This document shows, in pieces, positions 696 through 19,379 of a DNA stretch of 64,000 nucleotides. Within the stretch, counting starts at the first letter, position 1. Each line of letters starts with the position of its first letter. The position numbers were made by a program, and so were the translations under genes. Source of the DNA: an uncultured Alphaproteobacteria bacterium (GTDB lineage Bacteria; Pseudomonadota; Alphaproteobacteria; CBDUYM01); contig CBDUYM010000012.1 of NCBI GenBank assembly GCA_965371465.1, forward strand, positions 15,821-79,820, written 5' to 3'. The notes beneath the pieces were generated by a model. That model was not told where the DNA came from. It saw only the letters and a list, made by a program, of their open reading frames with translations, and did no database searches.

Positions 696-839
696 GCTTG
701 AGGTCAACTCGGCGCTTCAGGCTTGTCAGTTGCAGCGAAGTACAAGGCTGTATCTGGTCACCGCGTCTGACAGGGACGGAGCCTCCATTGCCGCTCTGAT
801 TTGACGCGATAAGTGTTGTCTGGCGAAGAGCCTTGGCGA

Positions 840-1382
840 TCAGGCCTTCAGCATTTTGGCGATGCGGATCACGTCCTCAGCGATTTTACGAATCTCAATG
901 CCCCGCGCCCTGTTGCTGGCCTGATTCTGCGCGTTCGCTGCCTCGTCGTAGACGGCGAAGGCGAGGCTGGCGAGCTCAGCGGCGTGCAAGCTGGCGCCCT
1001 GATTCGCGGGATCGCTGTCGAAAACATCCGCGACGACTTCAAACGCCTGCTTGAGCCTGGCGGCATCAATCGATGTCATCGAATTCTCGCTGTCTGCCGC
1101 AGCCTCGCTCAGAGGCCGGCCTTTGACCAGGCCAGTATCACGGTATCCAAGCTGCCGGATCACCATTTCCGAGACGCCGCGCGGCGTAAGAATCTCAAGA
1201 AGCTGAGCGATCTTGTCGGCGGGCAGGAAATCTTTTGCGGCCAGCTCCGGATTTTCCCAACGGGCGTAGCCGCTTGGTGTCCTGAAGCCCATCCGTTCCG
1301 CCATTTCAGCCTGAGTGAGGCCGGCGGCTCTGCGCAGCGTCTTCAGCCTGAGGGCTGCTGGTTCATGGATTTCTGTGGTCAT
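840..1382 (-). CDS. XRE-family helix-turn-helix transcriptional regulator (phage repressor-like)
   Basis: HTH motif LRLKTLRRAAGLTQAEMAERMGF near the N-terminus; ORF track gives 840..1547, start refined to MTTEIH (1382) because a TTGACA-N16-TATGAT promoter abuts it; alternative ATGs at 1394/1391. Confidence 0.7.
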   Translation of the reverse strand: MTTEIHEPAALRLKTLRRAAGLTQAEMAERMGFRTPSGYARWENPELAAKDFLPADKIAQLLEILTPRGVSEMVIRQLGYRDTGLVKGRPLSEAAADSENSMTSIDAARLKQAFEVVADVFDSDPANQGASLHAAELASLAFAVYDEAANAQNQASNRARGIEIRKIAEDVIRIAKMLKA

Positions 1383-1389
1383 GGCAACC

Positions 1390-1417
1390 ATCATAAACAC
1401 ATTTTTACTGTTGTCAA
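1390..1417 (-). promoter_or_regulatory. Near-consensus sigma70-type promoter (TTGACA-N16-TATGAT) placed for a leaderless repressor transcript
   Basis: On the minus strand, TTGACA at 1417..1412 and TATGAT at 1395..1390, with the ATG of MTTEIH at 1382..1380, about 7 nt from the -10; no SD before any of the three candidate ATGs. Confidence 0.4.
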
Positions 1418-1482
1418 AAGACATTAAAAGTGTAGTTTTCAGTTTCTCCCTTGATCCTTCTCGAAACAGAAATGGAACCGAC

Positions 1483-1872
1483 ATGCCCCAGGGCCGGATA
1501 AAGAAATTGTCGCGCAAACGATGCTGCGAATGCCAGACAGTGCTCAAGCTGAGCGAATTCAGACGGCACCCCAGAACCCGCGACGGCTACGCGAATATCT
1601 GTCGGAGCTGCATGAGCGCTCGCCCCAAGACTTCAACGCAACCCGCTGCATCCGTCACTGCGACGGCGAGAAGCCAACCAAGCCGTGCCAGCTTGCGTCG
1701 TGTCCGGGCGCTTCGCCATATGTATGAACGTCTGTCGTTACGCGGCTACGATGGAAGGCCCCATGCGAATCCGCTGAGCGCTACACCGGCAGCCGGGCGC
1801 GACGCTCCAGACATGACGAAGCGTCGCGGCTCAATTGGCCTGTCTTATACTCGCGACGAGTCGCAGATATGA
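1483..1872 (+). CDS. Hypothetical protein with Cys-rich zinc-ribbon-like N-terminus (phage-associated)
   Basis: In-frame ATG at 1483 within ORF 1315..1872; motif RKRCCECQ...ICRSC; divergent from the repressor; ATGA stop/start overlap with the next ORF. Confidence 0.45.
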   Translation: MPQGRIKKLSRKRCCECQTVLKLSEFRRHPRTRDGYANICRSCMSARPKTSTQPAASVTATARSQPSRASLRRVRALRHMYERLSLRGYDGRPHANPLSATPAAGRDAPDMTKRRGSIGLSYTRDESQI

Positions 1873-2219
1873 AAACTGCTGCACGGAACTGGCCCAAACC
1901 GCCAGTGGCGCGGGCGAGGTTCGAGGGTCAGGGCCTGACGCGGTATCAGATGCAGTCTCTGGAAGCCTGGCAACGGACGGTGGCTGGTCTCGAACAATTT
2001 GAACAAAAAGGCCCAGCCGTCGACGGGCCGCTTCGGGTTACATACACTATCCGCGGCGGTACGGCTAACACCGATCCACCTCTCGAAGCCTATAGCGGTA
2101 TTCTGACCGAGCAGCTCAGGCGTCTTCAGATCATCACCAGGGAAGCGACAGTCTCCAAGGCCATCATTCAATGGGGTGAAGTGAAAGTCGGCGTTCAGAT
2201 TGAAGTGGAGGAAATCTGA
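1869..2219 (+). CDS. Hypothetical protein (phage-associated)
   Basis: 116-aa ORF tightly packed between neighbours (4-nt overlap upstream, 1-nt gap downstream); no recognisable motif. Confidence 0.4.
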   Translation: MKTAARNWPKPPVARARFEGQGLTRYQMQSLEAWQRTVAGLEQFEQKGPAVDGPLRVTYTIRGGTANTDPPLEAYSGILTEQLRRLQIITREATVSKAIIQWGEVKVGVQIEVEEI

Positions 2220-2220
2220 A

Positions 2221-2799
2221 ATGAACCCAAGAAAAGATCAGCCCGACATGAACGAGACTGAAGAACGCCAGATCCCGACAAAGGAATATCTCGGCCACAA
2301 CCCGAATACCGTTGAAATCCGCGACCGCGATCCCGAGACCGGGGCGATTGTGCTGCACTATGTGAACCTGGATCAGCAGAATCATCCGGTTCTCAGCCGC
2401 CTGAGCAGGAACGGCACAATCACACCTGAGCAGGCAATCGCTGCAGAACGCTTTTACACCGATTACAACGCTGTTGGCTGCGGCCCGAACTATGCGACAG
2501 GTTCCCTGATCCGCATCGACAATGCCCATGGCGTCGATCACGACCATCGTGCCGATGTCCAGGCCCGGTATGACGGCGCCAGGCTACTCTTTATGGGGGC
2601 GGCGCTGTCGCTTCAGGTGAATGTTGTCGGTGAAGGCGAAAGCCTGCGTGCCTGGTGCCGGCGCTGGAACGTCAGCCGCAAGGCTGGCCAACGCCCCTAT
2701 TATCACGCGGAATGCATCGAGCTGCTGCGCGGCGTGCTCAATGATCTCGATGACTATTATCGGACCTGGGATTTACGGGTGAAACGCCGGAAAGCCTGA
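2221..2799 (+). CDS. Hypothetical protein (phage-associated)
   Basis: ATG at 2221 directly after the upstream stop (ORF track start 2200 would overlap); 192 aa, no recognisable motif. Confidence 0.45.
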   Translation: MNPRKDQPDMNETEERQIPTKEYLGHNPNTVEIRDRDPETGAIVLHYVNLDQQNHPVLSRLSRNGTITPEQAIAAERFYTDYNAVGCGPNYATGSLIRIDNAHGVDHDHRADVQARYDGARLLFMGAALSLQVNVVGEGESLRAWCRRWNVSRKAGQRPYYHAECIELLRGVLNDLDDYYRTWDLRVKRRKA

Positions 2800-3410
2800 C
2801 CAGGACTGCCAGGCGTCACCATCAGAACTGTAGCGCCTTGCGACCTCGGCATGGGGCCATCATCCCGGCTGGAACAGATCGGGCGCCAGTCCTTATCCGC
2901 CGCGCTGCGGGGGTTGGCGATTGTGCATCGGGGTCTGAACAGAGGCGACGCCTTTGTGGGGGCCGGTGTCGCGGTTTACAGCGAACTTGCCGGGGGCATT
3001 GCCCGGGTTCTGATCCGATTTCTGGCCCTTGGCCTTTTTAAGGGGTTTGGGCTTTCTGGGTTTTTTGGATTTTGGCATGCTTCAATTTCTCACAAGGTAA
3101 ATAGAGGTCATTCAAATGATTGCAGGGCGTGCATCAGCTCCTGCCGTGCGCCCCAGGACACTTTGCGGTTCGTTAAACCCAATTTTTGCGCATTTGCCTG
3201 AACCACTTGTAAGTCACATTGAAGCAGAGTCCGCATACTAACGGGTTTCGCCTGTCCGATCAATGCCTTAGAGCGGCATGACCGCGAAATTTGACCTTTC
3301 GATCAGTTTACGAGACATTGCGGCACGCTTGGCGTTACTGCGTAAGACAGTGACCAACGACCGAGCGAATTCACAGTCATTCAGAAATACCAAGGAAGAG
3401 TGCGGAGCCC

Positions 3411-3929
3411 TTGCGTCCGAAGAAATTTACTGACGATCTTGCCTCAGCCATCTGCCAGCGGATTGCAGCGGGCGAGACCATCCGGCTGATCTGCCAGGAC
3501 GGCGATATGCCCTCGAAGGCGACACTTTATCGCTGGCTCGCGGCTCCGGCTCAGGCAGCGTTTCGCGATCAGTACGCTGTCGCACTTGAAGCGCGTGCCG
3601 AGCTGATGGCAGAGGAAATTTTAGCCATCGCCGATGATGGGGCGAACGACTTTGTCGAGAAGCAGCTTAAATCAGGCGAAATCACCCATGTGTTTGATTC
3701 AGAGCGGGTGCAGCGGTCCCGGCTTCGCGTCGACGCCCGCAAATGGCTCCTCGCAAAAATGCTGCCCCGGAAATATGGCGATCTGGCTGCGCGCAGCAAA
3801 GCGCGTCACGAGGAAGGGCAATCTCAGGATGGAGAACCCGTAGATTACAAACAGGAACTCAATCGCAAACTGGCTCGCCTTGCAGACCAAATCCGCGCGC
3901 GCGAGCTGGATCGAAAGTCTGACGAATGA
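3411..3929 (+). CDS. Phage terminase small subunit
   Basis: 172-aa protein with N-terminal HTH-like segment (ICQRIAAGETIRLICQDGDMPSKATLYRWL) and RSRLRVDARKWLLAKMLPRKYGD, as in small terminases; TTG start; immediately followed by a large-terminase fragment. Confidence 0.6.
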   Translation: MRPKKFTDDLASAICQRIAAGETIRLICQDGDMPSKATLYRWLAAPAQAAFRDQYAVALEARAELMAEEILAIADDGANDFVEKQLKSGEITHVFDSERVQRSRLRVDARKWLLAKMLPRKYGDLAARSKARHEEGQSQDGEPVDYKQELNRKLARLADQIRARELDRKSDE

Positions 3930-4383
3930 TGAGGCTTCGGACTTACTCAAACGCTGGGAGTTCTGGGCACGACCTGAACAGATGGAACCTTCAGGCAACT
4001 GGCGGGTCTGGGCAATTATCGCTGGACGCGGCTTTGGCAAAACGCGAACCGGCGCAGAATGGGTCATGGCCAATGTCACAGGCGATACGCCAATGGCCAA
4101 AGGCCGTTACGGCCGTATCGCGCTGATCGCTGAAACTGCAGCCGACGCCCGCGACGTGATGGTCGAAGGGGAGAGTGGCATTCTGAATATTGCCGCGAAC
4201 AGTTTCCGGCCTACTTACGAACCATCGAAACGTCGTCTGACCTGGCCTAACGGCGCTGTTGCTTCGACGTTTTGCGCCCCTTACCCGATCCAGTTTGGTG
4301 GCGCGATCCAGAATCTTATTCAGTGCCTGTTCAATCGATCGAAACCTGCGTCGGTTGACATCCTTTACCGCTACGCATTGTAG
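3880..4383 (+). pseudogene. Phage terminase large subunit, N-terminal fragment (truncated remnant)
   Basis: WEFWARPEQ and AGRGFGKTRTGAEWV (Walker-A-like) then RIALIAETAADARDVMVEG match the N-terminal ATPase region of GTA/phage TerL, but the ORF stops after 167 aa; full TerL is roughly 400-450 aa and nothing downstream continues it. Confidence 0.55.
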
Positions 4384-4409
4384 CGGGCGTAAGCAGGGAG
4401 ATTACATGA

Positions 4410-4778
4410 ATGGATAAAGAAAAACTCACGGCAACTGTGAAAGAGGAAGGCTTTCATGCCGCCAGGTTCGCCATGCTGGTGACCATCACACTGGGGCTCA
4501 TTGGCCTTCTACAGGCGGCAGGGCTTGATCTTGATGATGTGCTGCCTGCGACCCGGGCTGATATTCAGTTTCTGGAGCAGGCTCAGGCGCGCGATGACGC
4601 CCTGTGGGCCAACTTCAATCTCATGAACCTGCAGGTGCGCCTTGCCCAGATCCAATCCGAGATCGACGCGACGGGCCCGAAACAAACGCTCATCCAGATC
4701 AAGGCTGATCTCGAACGCCAGATCCGCGAACAGACCCAGGAATACGAAGACGCCTCAAGACGCGCCCGCGAAGCGTAG
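4410..4778 (+). CDS. Hypothetical membrane-anchored coiled-coil protein (possible phage lysis/spanin-like)
   Basis: One N-terminal hydrophobic helix (FAMLVTITLGLIGLLQAAGL) followed by a charged, helical, Q/E/R-rich tail. Confidence 0.35.
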   Translation: MDKEKLTATVKEEGFHAARFAMLVTITLGLIGLLQAAGLDLDDVLPATRADIQFLEQAQARDDALWANFNLMNLQVRLAQIQSEIDATGPKQTLIQIKADLERQIREQTQEYEDASRRAREA

Positions 4779-4820
4779 CGGCAACAATCTCATCCCCCCT
4801 CAACCACAGGAGTAATCCCC

Positions 4821-5027
4821 ATGGATACAAAACCTTTTTACCTGTCCAAAACGCTTTGGGCCAATCTCATTGCCGGCGCAGCGGCCGTGCTCACAGCCTT
4901 CGGCTTTGACCTCGGCCTTGATGTCGAGACCCAGACCGCCATCGTCGGTGGCATCATGGCGCTGGTGAATGTTGTACTTCGCCTGACGACAAACAGCGCA
5001 ATTGGCTTAGGCGGTCAGAACGGATGA
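4821..5027 (+). CDS. Small membrane protein (phage holin-like)
   Basis: 68 aa with two hydrophobic segments; ATGA overlap with the next ORF. Confidence 0.4.
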   Translation: MDTKPFYLSKTLWANLIAGAAAVLTAFGFDLGLDVETQTAIVGGIMALVNVVLRLTTNSAIGLGGQNG

Positions 5028-5260
5028 TCTCCGCCGTTCTGAGCGCTCTTGCTTCCGGTCTTGAGGCCATAAAACTGTGGCTGAAAGGCCGGGAGCGAAG
5101 CGAGCTCAAGCATGCCGGGATCAATGAACAGAAAGTAACGGATCATGAAGCAAAAGATGCCTCGCGCGCCGAAAAACGCCGCCGTGACGATCATATCCGC
5201 CGCGATGTTGACGCTAACGTCCGCCTGCGTCAGCACTTCTACGACCCCCATGATCGGTGA
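5024..5260 (+). CDS. Hypothetical small protein
   Basis: 78-aa ORF with hydrophobic N-terminus and a highly charged tail; translationally coupled to the preceding ORF. Confidence 0.3.
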   Translation: MISAVLSALASGLEAIKLWLKGRERSELKHAGINEQKVTDHEAKDASRAEKRRRDDHIRRDVDANVRLRQHFYDPHDR

Positions 5261-5433
5261 TTTCTGCGACGAGTACACTGTCATCCGGGACGCAGACTCC
5301 CGCCATGTGCGCCTCAACAACGCTGTCTATGTCTGCAAATGCCTGGGGCCAGCTCATGCGCTCTATGCGGCAATCGGTTGCGGCGGCGTGGCAGTCTAGC
5401 CTATGCTCGCCCCTTGCATTAGGGGGAGAGATT

Positions 5434-6705
5434 ATGAAATTTGGTGTATTTTACGAGCTTCAGTTGCCCAAGCCCTGGGATGAGGGGCAGGAGCATGCAT
5501 TGTTTCAGCATGCGCTTGATCAGGTTGTGCTCGCCGACGAGATCGGTATCGATCATGCCTGGGCGGTGGAGCATCATTTCCTGGAAGAATATTCCCATTG
5601 CTCCGCGCCGGAGATTTTCCTGGCCGCAGCGGCGGCGCGGACGAAAAACATTCGTGTTGGCCATGGCATCCGCCAGGTCATTGCAAACTACAACAGTCCT
5701 GCGCGCACGGCGGAATGCATCGCGTCCCTCGATCTTATCTCCAACGGCCGGGTTGATTTTGGTATCGGTGAAGGGGCGACGCGGCTGGAGCTTCATGCTT
5801 TTGATATTCCAGCGCCCGAAAAACGCGCCATGAGCCTGGAGGCTGCCGAACAGATCGCCAATATGATGGCGATGACGCCTTATCCGGGCTATGTGGGAAA
5901 ATCGTTTTCCTTCCCGGCAAGGAACGTCATCCCCAAACCGCTGCAAAAGCCCCATCCTCCCATGTGGATGGCTTGCACCAACCGCGACACGATCAAGATT
6001 GCGGCGCAGAACGGCCTTGGCGCGCTTGCGTTTTCCTTCGTTGATCCCGAGGAAGCCCATAAGTGGAGCGAGATATACTACGACATCATCAAATCTGATG
6101 AATGTGTGCCCCTTGGCCATCGGGTGAATGCGAACATTGCCATGGTCTCATCGTTTTCCATGCATCATGATCGCGCCACCGCCATTCGCCAGGGCCAGGA
6201 GGGGTTCGAGTTCTTTGGCTATGCACTGAGACGCCTTGTAACCGAGGACATTATACCAGGCCACACTGAACATTTCGCAGAATTCCAGAAAATGCGCGGC
6301 AACCGGACCGAAGAGATGATTGCTGAGCTGGATGACCAGTCCGAAGGGATGGAACGTTCCGCCGGCATCGGCACGCCGGATGATTTCCGCAATCACGTCA
6401 ATCAGCTCGAAGCCGCCGGCATCGATCAGGTGATCCTGTTGCAGCAGGCCGGGAACAACACCCATGAACAGATCTGCTCTTCCCTGAACCTGTTCGCCGA
6501 AGAGGTGTTGCCCGAATTCAAGGCCAAGGTCGCCGAGAAGGAAGCGCGGAAAGAAAAGGAACTTGCGCCTTACATTGAGGCGGCGCTTGAGCGGAAAGAC
6601 AAAATGCCGGCACCTGCGGTGGAAGACATCCCGATCGTCAAGGCCGCTGTTGACACCAAAGCCTTCAACGAACGCCGCTACGCCAACCGCAGGAAGGCGG
6701 AGTAG
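5434..6705 (+). CDS. LLM class flavin-dependent oxidoreductase (luciferase-like monooxygenase family)
   Basis: Start refined to MKFGVFYELQLP (ATG 5434, preceded by AGGGGGAGAG); typical LLM N-terminus and length (423 aa). Confidence 0.85.
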   Translation: MKFGVFYELQLPKPWDEGQEHALFQHALDQVVLADEIGIDHAWAVEHHFLEEYSHCSAPEIFLAAAAARTKNIRVGHGIRQVIANYNSPARTAECIASLDLISNGRVDFGIGEGATRLELHAFDIPAPEKRAMSLEAAEQIANMMAMTPYPGYVGKSFSFPARNVIPKPLQKPHPPMWMACTNRDTIKIAAQNGLGALAFSFVDPEEAHKWSEIYYDIIKSDECVPLGHRVNANIAMVSSFSMHHDRATAIRQGQEGFEFFGYALRRLVTEDIIPGHTEHFAEFQKMRGNRTEEMIAELDDQSEGMERSAGIGTPDDFRNHVNQLEAAGIDQVILLQQAGNNTHEQICSSLNLFAEEVLPEFKAKVAEKEARKEKELAPYIEAALERKDKMPAPAVEDIPIVKAAVDTKAFNERRYANRRKAE

Positions 6706-7957: not shown

Positions 7958-9196
7958 ATGGCCCAATCACTTTGGGGAAATGTATATCTAGACGGCGGTT
8001 ATGCGGGACAATTGCAGGAAGAACCTGGCGGTCGCTGTGTCTTCATTTACGACGCTGCCTGGGTGGCCGAACGCCGGCCGGCCATCGCCCACACGCTGCC
8101 ACTTCGAGACGAACCTTACATAGACGAAAGGGGCTTGCACCCGTTTTTCGACAATCTCGTTGCGGAGGGGTGGCTTCGGAATGCCCAGGCCCGCGTTCTG
8201 GACGTAGCTCCGAGCAACGGATTTGCCCTGCTTCTCGGATTTGGCAGCGACTTGGCGGGGGCTGTCACTGTTCTTGATCCAGAACAGTCTGCGCGCAGAG
8301 TGTTGGACCAGCCCGATGAAGCAACGAGTGCTGCAATGAAGGGCAGCGCCTCCCTCTCTGGCATCCAAAGAAAGCTGCTCCTGATCAAAAAAGGTAAAGG
8401 CTTTCTGCCTGTCGGACCTGGGGAGCCAAGTACGCACATCGCGAAATTATCTTCGGGAGAACATCAGAACATTCTCGCACTGGAGTATCTGACTACAATG
8501 GCTGTGCGTCATCTGCTGCCAGACGATGACATCGTAGACATGGAAATCATGTTTCTTCCGTCTATTGGCGAAGAGGCACTGGTCATTCCGCGATTCGATA
8601 GGGCGCGGTCCGGGCGACGTCTGCATTTTGAGGAATTCAATCAACTGTTAGGGAAGTATTCAGGCGACGATAAGTACGAAGGGGCGTACCAGGACATGGG
8701 GCATTTCATCCTCAACACGCCAGGCTGCGTTCCGGCTGAGGCGGATCGCCTGCTTCGTCGAATTCTGGCCTGCTTGCTGGTCGGCAACACAGACGCACAT
8801 TTGAAGAACTTCGCGATGTTCCATACCCCGAATGGTCTGCGACTTACGCCTGCCTACGATCTGGTCGCTGGCTCGTACTATGCGGACTATCAGCGAATTG
8901 CTCTGACCGTTGGCGAAGCTCATGATCTGGATATCGGCAAACTGCAAGCGAAGCACCTGTTGTCCTTTGGCGAGGGCAGCTTTGGGGTCGCGGAAGACGC
9001 GGTCGTGCTGGCAATCGAACAGCTTGGAAAGCGGCTGTCGCTTGCACTCGCGGCGATCGAAGAATCGGAATTCGGCTCAAAGGCGCTGCGCACGACGCTA
9101 CAGGAAAGAATGGAGAAGAGATGGAACGGCAGTTTCGCATCAACTGGCCAGCTATTGTCGAAGAGGCAAAACAGAGACGCAAGAGCGAGCGGTTGA
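7958..9196 (+). CDS. hipA: HipA-family serine/threonine kinase toxin (type II TA toxin)
   Basis: 412 aa; HipA N-terminal domain pattern (FFDNLVAEGWLR...LLLGFGSDLAGAVTV), GIQRKLLLIK and catalytic-loop-like VGNTDAHLKNFAMF. Confidence 0.85.
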   Translation: MAQSLWGNVYLDGGYAGQLQEEPGGRCVFIYDAAWVAERRPAIAHTLPLRDEPYIDERGLHPFFDNLVAEGWLRNAQARVLDVAPSNGFALLLGFGSDLAGAVTVLDPEQSARRVLDQPDEATSAAMKGSASLSGIQRKLLLIKKGKGFLPVGPGEPSTHIAKLSSGEHQNILALEYLTTMAVRHLLPDDDIVDMEIMFLPSIGEEALVIPRFDRARSGRRLHFEEFNQLLGKYSGDDKYEGAYQDMGHFILNTPGCVPAEADRLLRRILACLLVGNTDAHLKNFAMFHTPNGLRLTPAYDLVAGSYYADYQRIALTVGEAHDLDIGKLQAKHLLSFGEGSFGVAEDAVVLAIEQLGKRLSLALAAIEESEFGSKALRTTLQERMEKRWNGSFASTGQLLSKRQNRDARASG

Positions 9197-18012: not shown

Positions 18013-19379
18013 TCGGCGGCAAGCTCAGCCATGCGCTGACGCACACGTGCAGCGATTTTTCCGGCCTTGATGCTCTCTGGCGGGTCGAGGAACTGGCTGA
18101 CGCGCATGATCTGTATTCTCAGCTGCCGGTCGTCGCGGGCAAGCGACATGAGGGCGGCATTAAAGGCGATTTCCTCGTCGAAGTTTTCAGGTTTGTCGCC
18201 TGTCGCTTCGGGGAAAACGAAATCACCGATCGCAGCGCGTAGCCAGGGCTCGTGCACGAACTCGGCCTGGCGGTGACGGAAGATTTCTCCTGCCTGGCCG
18301 TGACCGAGGCCAGTGGCCTTCAGTTCCTGAAACACTCCACCCAAAATTTTCGCCTGATAGAGCCCCGATGTCATGCCCTGGCCATAGAGGGGATTGAGGC
18401 TGACAACGGAATCGCCAAGGGCCGCGAAACCAGTTGGGAAAGCCGCCATTTGTTCAAAGTGGTGCCACAGATTTGACGGGAAATTGAAGCTTGTCGGCGG
18501 GACGGTCACGGGCCGGTCCTTCAGCGTTTCAAAAACGTCAGCGGAGGCGAGCTCGACCATGTCCTGCATCAAGCCCTCAAGCCCTTGCCTTGGCACCTGG
18601 CCGAGCCGACCGGAAATTGACACCAGCCATTGATTGCCCTCGACCGCAATCAGGCTTGTGCCGATTTTGGTGCGCGGGAAATCACGGATGATATAGCCCC
18701 ATTCATCCCGGCCAGGGTCATCTTCCCGATCGAACAGAATGGTTGTGTATTTGATGCCGATATTGATTTCGGATTTCGGTGGCGCGCCATAACCGAGTGC
18801 CTCAAGCCAGCTGATACCGCGTGACCCGCGACCCGAAGCGTCGACAACAAAATCGCCTTCGATGATGTCCTCGCCGCTCCCGTCGCTAACGGAAATGCCG
18901 CCGATCGTGCCATTTTCGCTCGCATACAGCCCGGTGACGCGCTGTTCCCACATTGAGGCGACATTGGGGATTACATCGATATTTTTCCGGATTGTTTCTT
19001 CGATCAATGGCCGCGTCTGGGTCAGAACTTCAATGCCGCTCGGCTCTTTGCGGCTGTATCCCCCTGGGCCATAGATGCGAAAACCGATACCATTGTCGAA
19101 GCTCACGCTGCCCGCGGCCACCATCTGATCCCGGAAGCTGCCAAGCGGGGAGGAGGCCGGGAAAAACTCCTCCAGAATGGCTTGTGCCCCGGCTTGCAGG
19201 ACATGGATGTGCTTTCCTGCCGGTACGCCGGGCCTTGTGACATAGCCCACCGGGCGCTTGTCTTTCTCAAAGATCAGTACCTCTTCAAAATGATCCGACA
19301 GCACGCGTGCCGCCGACAATCCTGCGTGCGACGCGCCAATGACAATCGCCCGGCTGGCGATATAGTTTTCTTCACCCAT
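18009..19379 (-). CDS. FAD-dependent oxidoreductase
   Basis: N-terminal dinucleotide-binding pattern AIVIGASHAGLSAARVL...LIFEK; 456 aa. Confidence 0.7.
   Translation of the reverse strand: MGEENYIASRAIVIGASHAGLSAARVLSDHFEEVLIFEKDKRPVGYVTRPGVPAGKHIHVLQAGAQAILEEFFPASSPLGSFRDQMVAAGSVSFDNGIGFRIYGPGGYSRKEPSGIEVLTQTRPLIEETIRKNIDVIPNVASMWEQRVTGLYASENGTIGGISVSDGSGEDIIEGDFVVDASGRGSRGISWLEALGYGAPPKSEINIGIKYTTILFDREDDPGRDEWGYIIRDFPRTKIGTSLIAVEGNQWLVSISGRLGQVPRQGLEGLMQDMVELASADVFETLKDRPVTVPPTSFNFPSNLWHHFEQMAAFPTGFAALGDSVVSLNPLYGQGMTSGLYQAKILGGVFQELKATGLGHGQAGEIFRHRQAEFVHEPWLRAAIGDFVFPEATGDKPENFDEEIAFNAALMSLARDDRQLRIQIMRVSQFLDPPESIKAGKIAARVRQRMAELAAD

Follow-up and report, generated by a model that had tools for sequence, protein, structure and literature searches.

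At the left end of a 64,000-nt stretch of DNA from an uncultured alphaproteobacterium (GenBank assembly GCA_965371465.1, contig CBDUYM010000012.1, positions 15,821 to 79,820 of the forward strand; the whole stretch is hereafter called the window), two genes diverge from a 100-nt intergenic region at 1383-1482. One encodes a repressor-like protein with a helix-turn-helix (HTH) domain of the XRE family and the other a zinc-ribbon protein, and both belong to a prophage remnant of about 4.4 kb (about 840-5250), with the repressor gene at its left edge. This report concerns the intergenic region, whose layout suggests that the repressor mRNA is leaderless and that the repressor acts on two back-to-back promoters. 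The features of the locus are collected in Table 1.

Table 1 Features of the repressor gene, its control region and the surrounding prophage remnant (positions in the window).
Feature	Position	Strand	Remarks
XRE-family HTH repressor-like gene	840-1382	minus	180 aa counted from ATG 1382
Start codon ATG	1380-1382	minus	predicted transcription start at A1382 or C1383
Discriminator GGTTGCC	1389-1383	minus	7 nt separating the -10 hexamer from ATG 1382
-10 hexamer TATGAT, repressor promoter	1395-1390	minus	invariant in L001, L137, L138 and L139; TATGCT in L003
Spacer ACAGTAAAAATGTGTT	1411-1396	minus	16 nt, between -35 and -10 of the repressor promoter
-35 hexamer TTGACA, repressor promoter	1417-1412	minus	identical in all six sequences, including the 57% identical orthologue
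Block without substitution between window and L001	1390-1434	both	45 nt; 25% G+C in a 57% G+C genome
-35-like TTGTCA, divergent promoter	1411-1416	plus	5/6 match; 5-bp overlap with the repressor -35 on the opposite strand
-10-like TAGTTT, divergent promoter	1433-1438	plus	3/6 match (T1, A2 and T6 present)
Candidate operator O_a, ACATTTTTACTGT (ACA-N7-TGT)	1399-1411		takes up 13/16 spacer bases of the repressor promoter
Candidate operator O_b, ACATTAAAAGTGT	1421-1433		inverted copy of O_a (11/13), within the divergent promoter spacer
Zinc-ribbon gene, first of the divergent operon	1483-1872	plus	129 aa, CxxC...CxxC, not a Cro-like HTH
Two open reading frames, function not assigned	1869-2219, 2221-2799		between the zinc-ribbon gene and TerS
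Terminase small subunit (TerS)	3411-3929	plus	Pfam Sf6_terminase, 1e-38
Truncated terminase large subunit (TerL)	3880-4383	plus	Terminase_6N, profile positions 2-79 of 215
Three small open reading frames	downstream of truncated TerL		within the remnant

A sequence-only reading of this DNA had described a minus-strand TTGACA-N16-TATGAT promoter whose -10 hexamer overlaps two candidate ATGs and lies about 7 nt before a third, and each of these statements was borne out. Among the four in-frame ATGs, those at 1394-1392 and 1391-1389 lie inside the -10 hexamer and overlap it by 2 nt, respectively, while ATG 1424 is further upstream and ATG 1382 follows; counted exactly, C1383 is the seventh base after the hexamer and A1382 the eighth. 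By its bases the promoter is of the sigma-70 form: the hexamers are close to TTGACA/TATAAT, and the 16-nt spacer is within the range of 16-18. It was the only site returned by a promoter scan of 700-2300, with 11/12 consensus matches, and when both strands of the entire window were scanned, two sites agreed with the sigma-70 consensus at 11 or more of the 12 positions, where Markov shuffles yield 0.15 ± 0.38. An extended -10 element (TGn) was considered and rejected, the TG at 1399-1398 being one base off register. The second site with at least 11/12 matches, GTGACA-N16-TATAAT at 55753-55780 (minus strand), precedes ATG 55702 by about 50 nt, and this ATG opens a long chromosomal gene (53018-55702) resembling phosphoenolpyruvate synthase and rifampicin phosphotransferase; the site is probably the promoter of that gene, with a conventional leader.

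RNA polymerase most often starts 7 bp downstream of the -10 element, a shift of a base or two being possible, and strongly favours a purine at the start site and a pyrimidine just before it (PMC5730371). Because position 7 is a C and position 8 an A, a purine preceded by a pyrimidine, A1382 is the favoured start in our prediction; a start at C1383 would leave a 1-nt leader, and any start downstream of A1382 would cost the message its start codon. In the minimum-free-energy fold of the putative mRNA, none of the first 31 nt is paired. We also tested the window for leaderless geometry, taking in-frame ATGs in the first 40% of open frames of at least 100 codons that leave an open reading frame (ORF) of at least 100 codons, and scoring a TAnnnT hexamer 5-8 nt upstream of the ATG together with a -35 element of at least 4/6 matches: ATG 1382 was the only strong case. 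The sole other ATG of this kind in a long ORF, at 19379 (minus strand), has a -10-like TAGGCT 8 nt upstream and a poor -35 (ATGACT), and this weak second candidate is probably a product of chance. In Methylorubrum, also an alphaproteobacterium, 7% of mRNAs are leaderless, the -35 element is E. coli-like and promoters such as TTGACA-N16-TATAGA occur (PMC9320726).

The 7 nt between the -10 hexamer and ATG 1382 leave no room for a Shine-Dalgarno (SD) sequence, and none was detected at any of the four in-frame ATGs, as the sequence-only reading had maintained. When the 20 nt upstream of each were paired with a generic anti-SD sequence (assumed, the 16S gene lying outside the window), the energies were +0.4 kcal/mol for ATG 1424, -1.6 kcal/mol for both 1394 and 1391 and -3.0 kcal/mol for 1382; this is no better than random 20-mers from the window (median -3.1 kcal/mol), and the neighbouring genes reach -6.6 to -9.3 kcal/mol.

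Comparison with relatives shows which parts of the region are held constant. Sequences with about 90% DNA identity to the window fall into two lineages, L001/L002/L137 and L138/L139, which with the window's own make three close lineages; a distant lineage, L003, has 57% protein identity and about 70% identity in coding DNA. L137, L138 and L139 were recovered through homologues of the neighbouring zinc-ribbon gene (orf129) and the others through the repressor, and the contigs with homologues of orf116 were too short to include the control region; P0001 and P0089 were not traced to a locus. All contigs with relatives of the remnant genes stem from a single run series except L136, a 545-nt contig of the European Nucleotide Archive (ERZ24794554). 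TTGACA-N16-TATGAT-N7-ATG is present in all three close lineages, and the 7-nt discriminator keeps its length while its sequence varies (GGTTGCC as against TGTGGCC); in L003 the promoter reads TTGACA-N16-TATGCT. Between the window and L001 there are 12 substitutions in 100 intergenic positions, all at 1435-1473, 1386 or 1389. The block free of them takes in the repressor -10 at one end and the first two bases of the divergent -10 at the other; by our own arithmetic the hypergeometric chance of such a 45-nt block is about 4e-4, not corrected for the block having been chosen. In the promoter-operator core the three close lineages together show a single substitution, at 1408 in L138/L139.

The distant lineage differs in what follows the promoter: 19 nt separate its -10 from the ATG, against 7 in the window. 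The 12 extra nt (AGGAGTTATGAC) place AGGAG 7 nt before the ATG, with an anti-SD pairing energy of -6.9 kcal/mol, and the indel is in frame. Given an unchanged distance between the -10 and the transcription start, the 12 extra nt would be the entire 5' untranslated region (5' UTR) of the L003 mRNA, and the same promoter would serve an SD-led form in L003 and a leaderless form in the window's lineage. Either of these two states may be the ancestral one. In L003 (560-700) the divergent zinc-ribbon gene, like the repressor gene, is preceded by AGGAG at a distance of 7 nt (-8.6 kcal/mol, against -6.9 kcal/mol for the repressor gene). In the window, where the repressor gene lacks an SD altogether, the zinc-ribbon gene offers only GGAA (-3.3 kcal/mol), and both signals thus differ from those of L003.

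These observations bear on the competing explanation that survives best, which we nevertheless consider unlikely: that ATG 1382 is translated mainly from a longer transcript, made from an unrecognised promoter, by internal SD-independent initiation. Such a transcript could arise from the promoter of an alternative sigma factor or from antisense transcription through orf129, and the consensus-like site would then be minor, or an UP element or -35 partner of the divergent promoter. Our promoter scans were limited to sigma-70-type consensus, internal SD-independent initiation is common in some alphaproteobacteria, and a weak terminator-like hairpin at 1490-1473 (minus strand) hints at transcription entering from upstream, all of which would suit a longer transcript. 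However, the conserved hexamers, the 16-nt spacing and the constant 7-nt distance to the ATG are hard to explain unless the promoter is the gene's own; the L003 SD coincides with the point at which a transcript from this promoter is predicted to begin, and the scans found no further promoter-like site.

The protein encoded from ATG 1382 (MTTEIHEPAALRLK..., MTTEIH...) is recognisable as repressor-like by its HTH domain. Residues 10-65 match the Pfam families HTH_31 (32.6 bits, cut-off 27) and HTH_3 (25.4 bits, cut-off 23), both above the gathering threshold, and the PHROG matches of the product are to 'transcriptional repressor' families. An AlphaFold model built from a three-sequence alignment has a mean predicted local distance difference test score (pLDDT) of 56 and is confident for the HTH domain only: residues 9-79 form five helices with pLDDT of about 70-88, and the C-terminal 100 residues are predicted, at low confidence, as three helices and nothing else. 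Peptidase_S24 is absent from the Pfam matches.

The 180-codon ORF is unbroken in all lineages compared. The ratio of nonsynonymous to synonymous substitution rates (dN/dS, or omega) is 0.33, 0.25 and 0.15 for the three pairs compared (binomial P 1e-3, 3e-5 and 5e-5), at a dS between the three close lineages of 0.12-0.20, and falls to 0.06-0.09 in the HTH domain alone. On these substitution patterns the ORF is under purifying selection, from which it follows that it would be translated without an SD; with no SD, no room for a leader and selection at the protein level, leaderless translation is the simplest explanation.

The same figures speak to a second alternative, in which the promoter is real and the loss of the leader is damage: a 12-nt deletion would have removed the SD-bearing leader, leaving a gene that is silent or hardly translated and is turning into a pseudogene. 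Such decay would be natural in an element already reduced to a remnant, with its TerL truncated. The strong SDs that both divergent genes have in L003, where the window has a weak one before orf129 and none before the repressor gene, dN/dS values for the repressor and orf129 that are the highest of the remnant genes (0.33 and 0.55), and a C-terminal half of the repressor with an omega of 0.92 between the window and L001 all point the same way. We still find decay quite improbable. The ORF has stayed intact in three lineages through the synonymous divergence given above, the constraint on it is significant and strongest in the HTH domain, the 7-nt spacing to the ATG is held while the spacer sequence changes, and the promoter-operator core has next to no substitutions; moreover, the 12-nt indel may also be an insertion in L003. 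Leaderless mRNAs that begin with AUG are described in PMC10491246 as translated in all bacteria tested.

The position of the start codon is indicated by the distant orthologue. The L003 protein, P0003, begins MSTEI and aligns with MTTEI at the equivalent methionine, and the L003 counterpart of ATG 1424 is followed immediately by TAA; ATG 1382 is therefore the conserved start. The remaining in-frame upstream ATG in L003, inside the -10 hexamer, would add MLWPRSYD, which is unrelated to the MMVA of the window, and ATG 1391 reads ATT in L001, L137, L138 and L139. In public databases the gene callers' start is ATG 1424, giving 194 aa (P0001 and P0002); on the strength of this comparison it is very probably a mis-start, the true product being 180 aa from ATG 1382. 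That the annotation is right after all, with 194 aa (or a shorter extension from ATG 1394) made from a leadered transcript begun further upstream and TTGACA-N16-TATGAT being coding sequence conserved only for an N-terminal extension, is very unlikely: the callers' choice, a frame open from 1547, an extension (MSFDNSKNVFM(M/I)VA) nearly identical among the close lineages and the SD-less initiation of many alphaproteobacterial genes are outweighed by the L003 stop codon, a 1-nt indel that changes the frame there and an orthologue that starts behind AGGAG, by the worst anti-SD pairing of the four ATGs, by an upstream region whose only same-strand promoter match is a poor one (8/12, 19-nt spacer) inside the neighbouring gene, by the very small likelihood of an 11/12 consensus promoter arising by chance within 42 nt of coding DNA, and by a conserved block that reaches beyond ATG 1424 (1425-1434), into what would on that account be untranslated leader.

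On the opposite strand lies a weaker promoter candidate for the divergent genes. Its -35-like TTGTCA is kept in all relatives because its bases are shared with the repressor's TTGACA. The spacer is 16 nt in the window and 17 nt in L003, where TAGTTT is identical; in L001, L137, L138 and L139 the only nearby change, at 1435, gives TATTTT, which is closer to consensus. The predicted leader of the divergent gene would be about 38 nt, with the weak GGAA before ATG 1483.

Between 1395 and 1483, where the sequence-only reading had suggested looking for repeated operator half-sites, there are two ACA-N7-TGT sites, the candidate operators O_a and O_b, with centres 22 bp apart (about two helical turns). 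The ACA and TGT arms of O_a are kept in L003 (ACACGAAAAATGT) and L138 (ACAATAAAAATGT), and O_b reads ACACTTTTCATGT in L003; the arms are conserved, and the fourth base and the centre vary in L003 and L138. With up to two mismatches, ACACTTTTAATGT matches the 64-kb window only at these two places, and ACA-N7-TGT was counted 17 times against 9 expected. Matches to TTGACAACANNAAAAATGT in viral contigs (27) were rejected as chance, none of them having similar flanks. Since the candidate operators lie inside the spacers of both promoters, the layout would predict plain repression of both, not lambda-style activation of the PRM type.

The reading we favour, with a probability of about 0.68, is that of a leaderless repressor gene (or one with a leader of at most 1 nt) whose ATG abuts its promoter, within a control region of two promoters and two operators that belongs to a decayed alphaproteobacterial prophage. 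On the minus strand, a strong promoter of the sigma-70 type would end 7 nt before ATG 1382, so that polymerase would start at A1382 or one base earlier; the repressor mRNA would be essentially without 5' UTR and without SD, and the ribosome would bind its 5'-terminal AUG and make the 180-aa XRE-type protein rather than one of 194 aa. The weaker back-to-back promoter, TTGTCA-N16-TAGTTT, would drive the divergent operon that starts at 1483. The repressor would most likely bind O_a and O_b as a dimer or pair of dimers and, once bound, exclude RNA polymerase, keeping the divergent operon off and limiting its own synthesis (negative autoregulation). The leaderless, promoter-abutting arrangement put forward in the sequence-only reading thus draws on what sequence and comparison provide: the match and rarity of the promoter, its conserved hexamers and spacing, the 45-nt block, the lack of an SD, the true start codon as placed by L003 and the selection on the protein, the transcription start itself being predicted.

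Several points weigh against this reading. Promoter activity in the host and the exact start site are predictions, as are leaderless translation, the identity of the operators and the direction of regulation. The modal start is C1383, so on distance alone a 1-nt leader is as likely. The promoter was scored against the sigma-70 consensus, and the host may differ in its sigma-70 preferences and in its capacity for leaderless translation; it is poorly sampled, its SpoT being at most 59% identical to that of any of 185,579 GTDB species representatives, with all of the best matches in Alphaproteobacteria. The comparative set is small, with three close lineages and a distant one, and it is narrow because nearly all of the contigs stem from one sequencing-run series (ERR10503165-ERR10503253). 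The C-terminal half of the repressor is near-neutral between the window and L001, as noted above. The divergent -10 matches at only 3/6 positions, below the threshold of the standard promoter scan, and is the weaker call. The operator pattern was picked after inspection of the sequence, and the operators are candidates.

The closest model is the cI gene of phage lambda, whose mRNA is leaderless (PMC10491246). As with cI and PRM, the repressor gene diverges from an early operon across a short intergenic control region (100 nt here), and a -10 element lies a few bases before an ATG where an SD-less message starts at its AUG, as the geometry predicts for our locus. This arrangement is already known from lambda cI, and no new mechanism is revealed. 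The differences are nevertheless extensive: the repressor-like protein does not resemble cI in sequence and lacks an S24/LexA-like autocleavage domain, its C-terminus being predicted as all-helical, with no fold assigned; a zinc-ribbon gene stands opposite it in place of a Cro-like gene; the candidate operators are two, inside both promoter spacers, instead of three (OR1-3); the layout predicts autorepression instead of PRM-type activation; the -35 hexamers of the back-to-back promoters overlap; and the locus is a non-inducible remnant of about 4.4 kb, not a complete temperate phage genome. By the defining features tested (S24, Cro, tripartite operator, complete phage) it is not a lambda-type switch. 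Of the lambdoid-like divergent immunity switch envisaged in the sequence-only reading, a plausible divergent promoter and two candidate operators therefore remain, while Cro, S24 and inducibility fall away.

In the immB region of the telomere phage PY54 both cI and cro are leaderless, as determined by rapid amplification of cDNA ends (PMC4488713). That region shares with ours the divergent genes, the short operator-bearing intergenic sequence and a strong promoter immediately upstream of a start codon. It differs in pairing two HTH repressor genes, neither of which has a leader, whereas here leaderless geometry is confined to the repressor gene, the zinc-ribbon gene opposite having a predicted leader of about 38 nt; the hosts are Enterobacteriaceae and Alphaproteobacteria, respectively, and the starts are mapped in PY54 and predicted here.

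The operators of 434-type repressors and of the C repressor of rhizobiophage 16-3, which infects an alphaproteobacterium, have the form ACAA-Nn-TTGT. They offer a lead, being short palindromes with ACA/TGT arms and an A+T-rich centre that are recognised by XRE/434-like HTH proteins. The spacing at our locus is ACA-N7-TGT with a variable fourth base, the recognition helix of the repressor-like protein, read from its sequence as RTPSGYARWE, is unlike that of 434, and homology is not detectable beyond the generic HTH; operator binding here is a prediction. In Tn10, tetR and tetA have overlapping divergent promoters with operators inside them, controlled by one repressor. This too is a lead, with back-to-back overlapping promoters, two palindromic operators and an HTH repressor that shuts both, but the protein here has an HTH of the XRE type (HTH_31/HTH_3) and not TetR-family, lacks a recognised ligand-binding domain and is encoded in phage-derived surroundings.

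The repressor has very few relatives. A word-indexed search of 5.8 billion proteins gave a family of three members, and a HMMER search of 1.84 billion representatives (50% clustering) returned P0003 as the sole full-length relative, the remaining matches being confined to the HTH. Matches to the repressor alignment in metagenome and viral data were rejected as orthologues, since they share the generic HTH only (residues ~6-77). A tblastn search of 50,697 phage records gave no match, a scan of the genome collection found no relatives, and a search of the PDB returned a single weak HTH match, Aca3 (E = 0.0024).

The rest of the remnant is consistent with a phage origin and an incapacity to form virions. 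No integrase, replication or structural genes were found in its ~4.4 kb, nor were att-like direct repeats flanking it; Rfam gave no known RNA family in 700-5400, and PADLOC no meaningful defence-system match. All of its ORFs are intact, with dN/dS of 0.05-0.55. Residues 8-82 of the zinc-ribbon protein match Lar-like, endonuclease VII and HNH families in PHROG, and the protein has no match in Pfam. L003 is syntenic here: its zinc-ribbon homologue is 35% identical and its counterpart of 1869-2219 is 64% identical. TerL is truncated after about residue 141, and only residues ~7-141 align with the N-termini of phage TerL proteins (57% identity to Brevundimonas phages). The TerL ORF has 167 aa, a length unchanged in L001, and although it is a dead packaging gene, no other gene of the remnant is as strongly constrained (dN/dS 0.05; 6 nonsynonymous vs 33 synonymous). 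A 24-nt direct repeat (GGATAAAGAAA...; 75% identity) at 1496-1519 and 4412-4435 on the plus strand, near the 5' ends of orf129 and orf122, is probably due to chance.

The remnant is flanked by chromosomal genes, a glyoxalase-family gene (327-695) to the left and a luciferase-like monooxygenase gene (5257-6705) to the right, and the remainder of the window is chromosomal (ParC, SpoT, HipA and others). L001/L002 have the same remnant layout, and the close lineages carry the remnant between the same chromosomal genes, which indicates vertical inheritance. A HipA-family kinase gene at 7958-9196 (plus strand; Couple_hipA and HipA_C) presumably encodes the toxin of a HipBA-type module.

For the family, of which only about three members are known, the comparison yields a corrected gene model of 180 aa in place of the called 194 aa, together with a map, open to testing, of a compact control region in which two promoters are combined with two candidate operators; the locus would also be an alphaproteobacterial, prophage-derived addition to the known pattern of leaderless temperate-phage repressor genes. 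More tentatively, and against the balance of our own expectation, the repressor and its control region may have been kept by selection in a remnant that cannot form virions and that at least three lineages carry, by vertical descent, at one chromosomal site; the promoter would moreover exist in a leaderless and an SD-led form, set apart by an indel of 12 nt that makes up the entire predicted 5' UTR. The repressor may then be a domesticated regulator, which, if true, could for example protect the host from superinfection by relatives of the lost phage, or control the retained remnant genes. The leaderless and SD-led orthologues would also make a natural test of switching between translation modes in Alphaproteobacteria.

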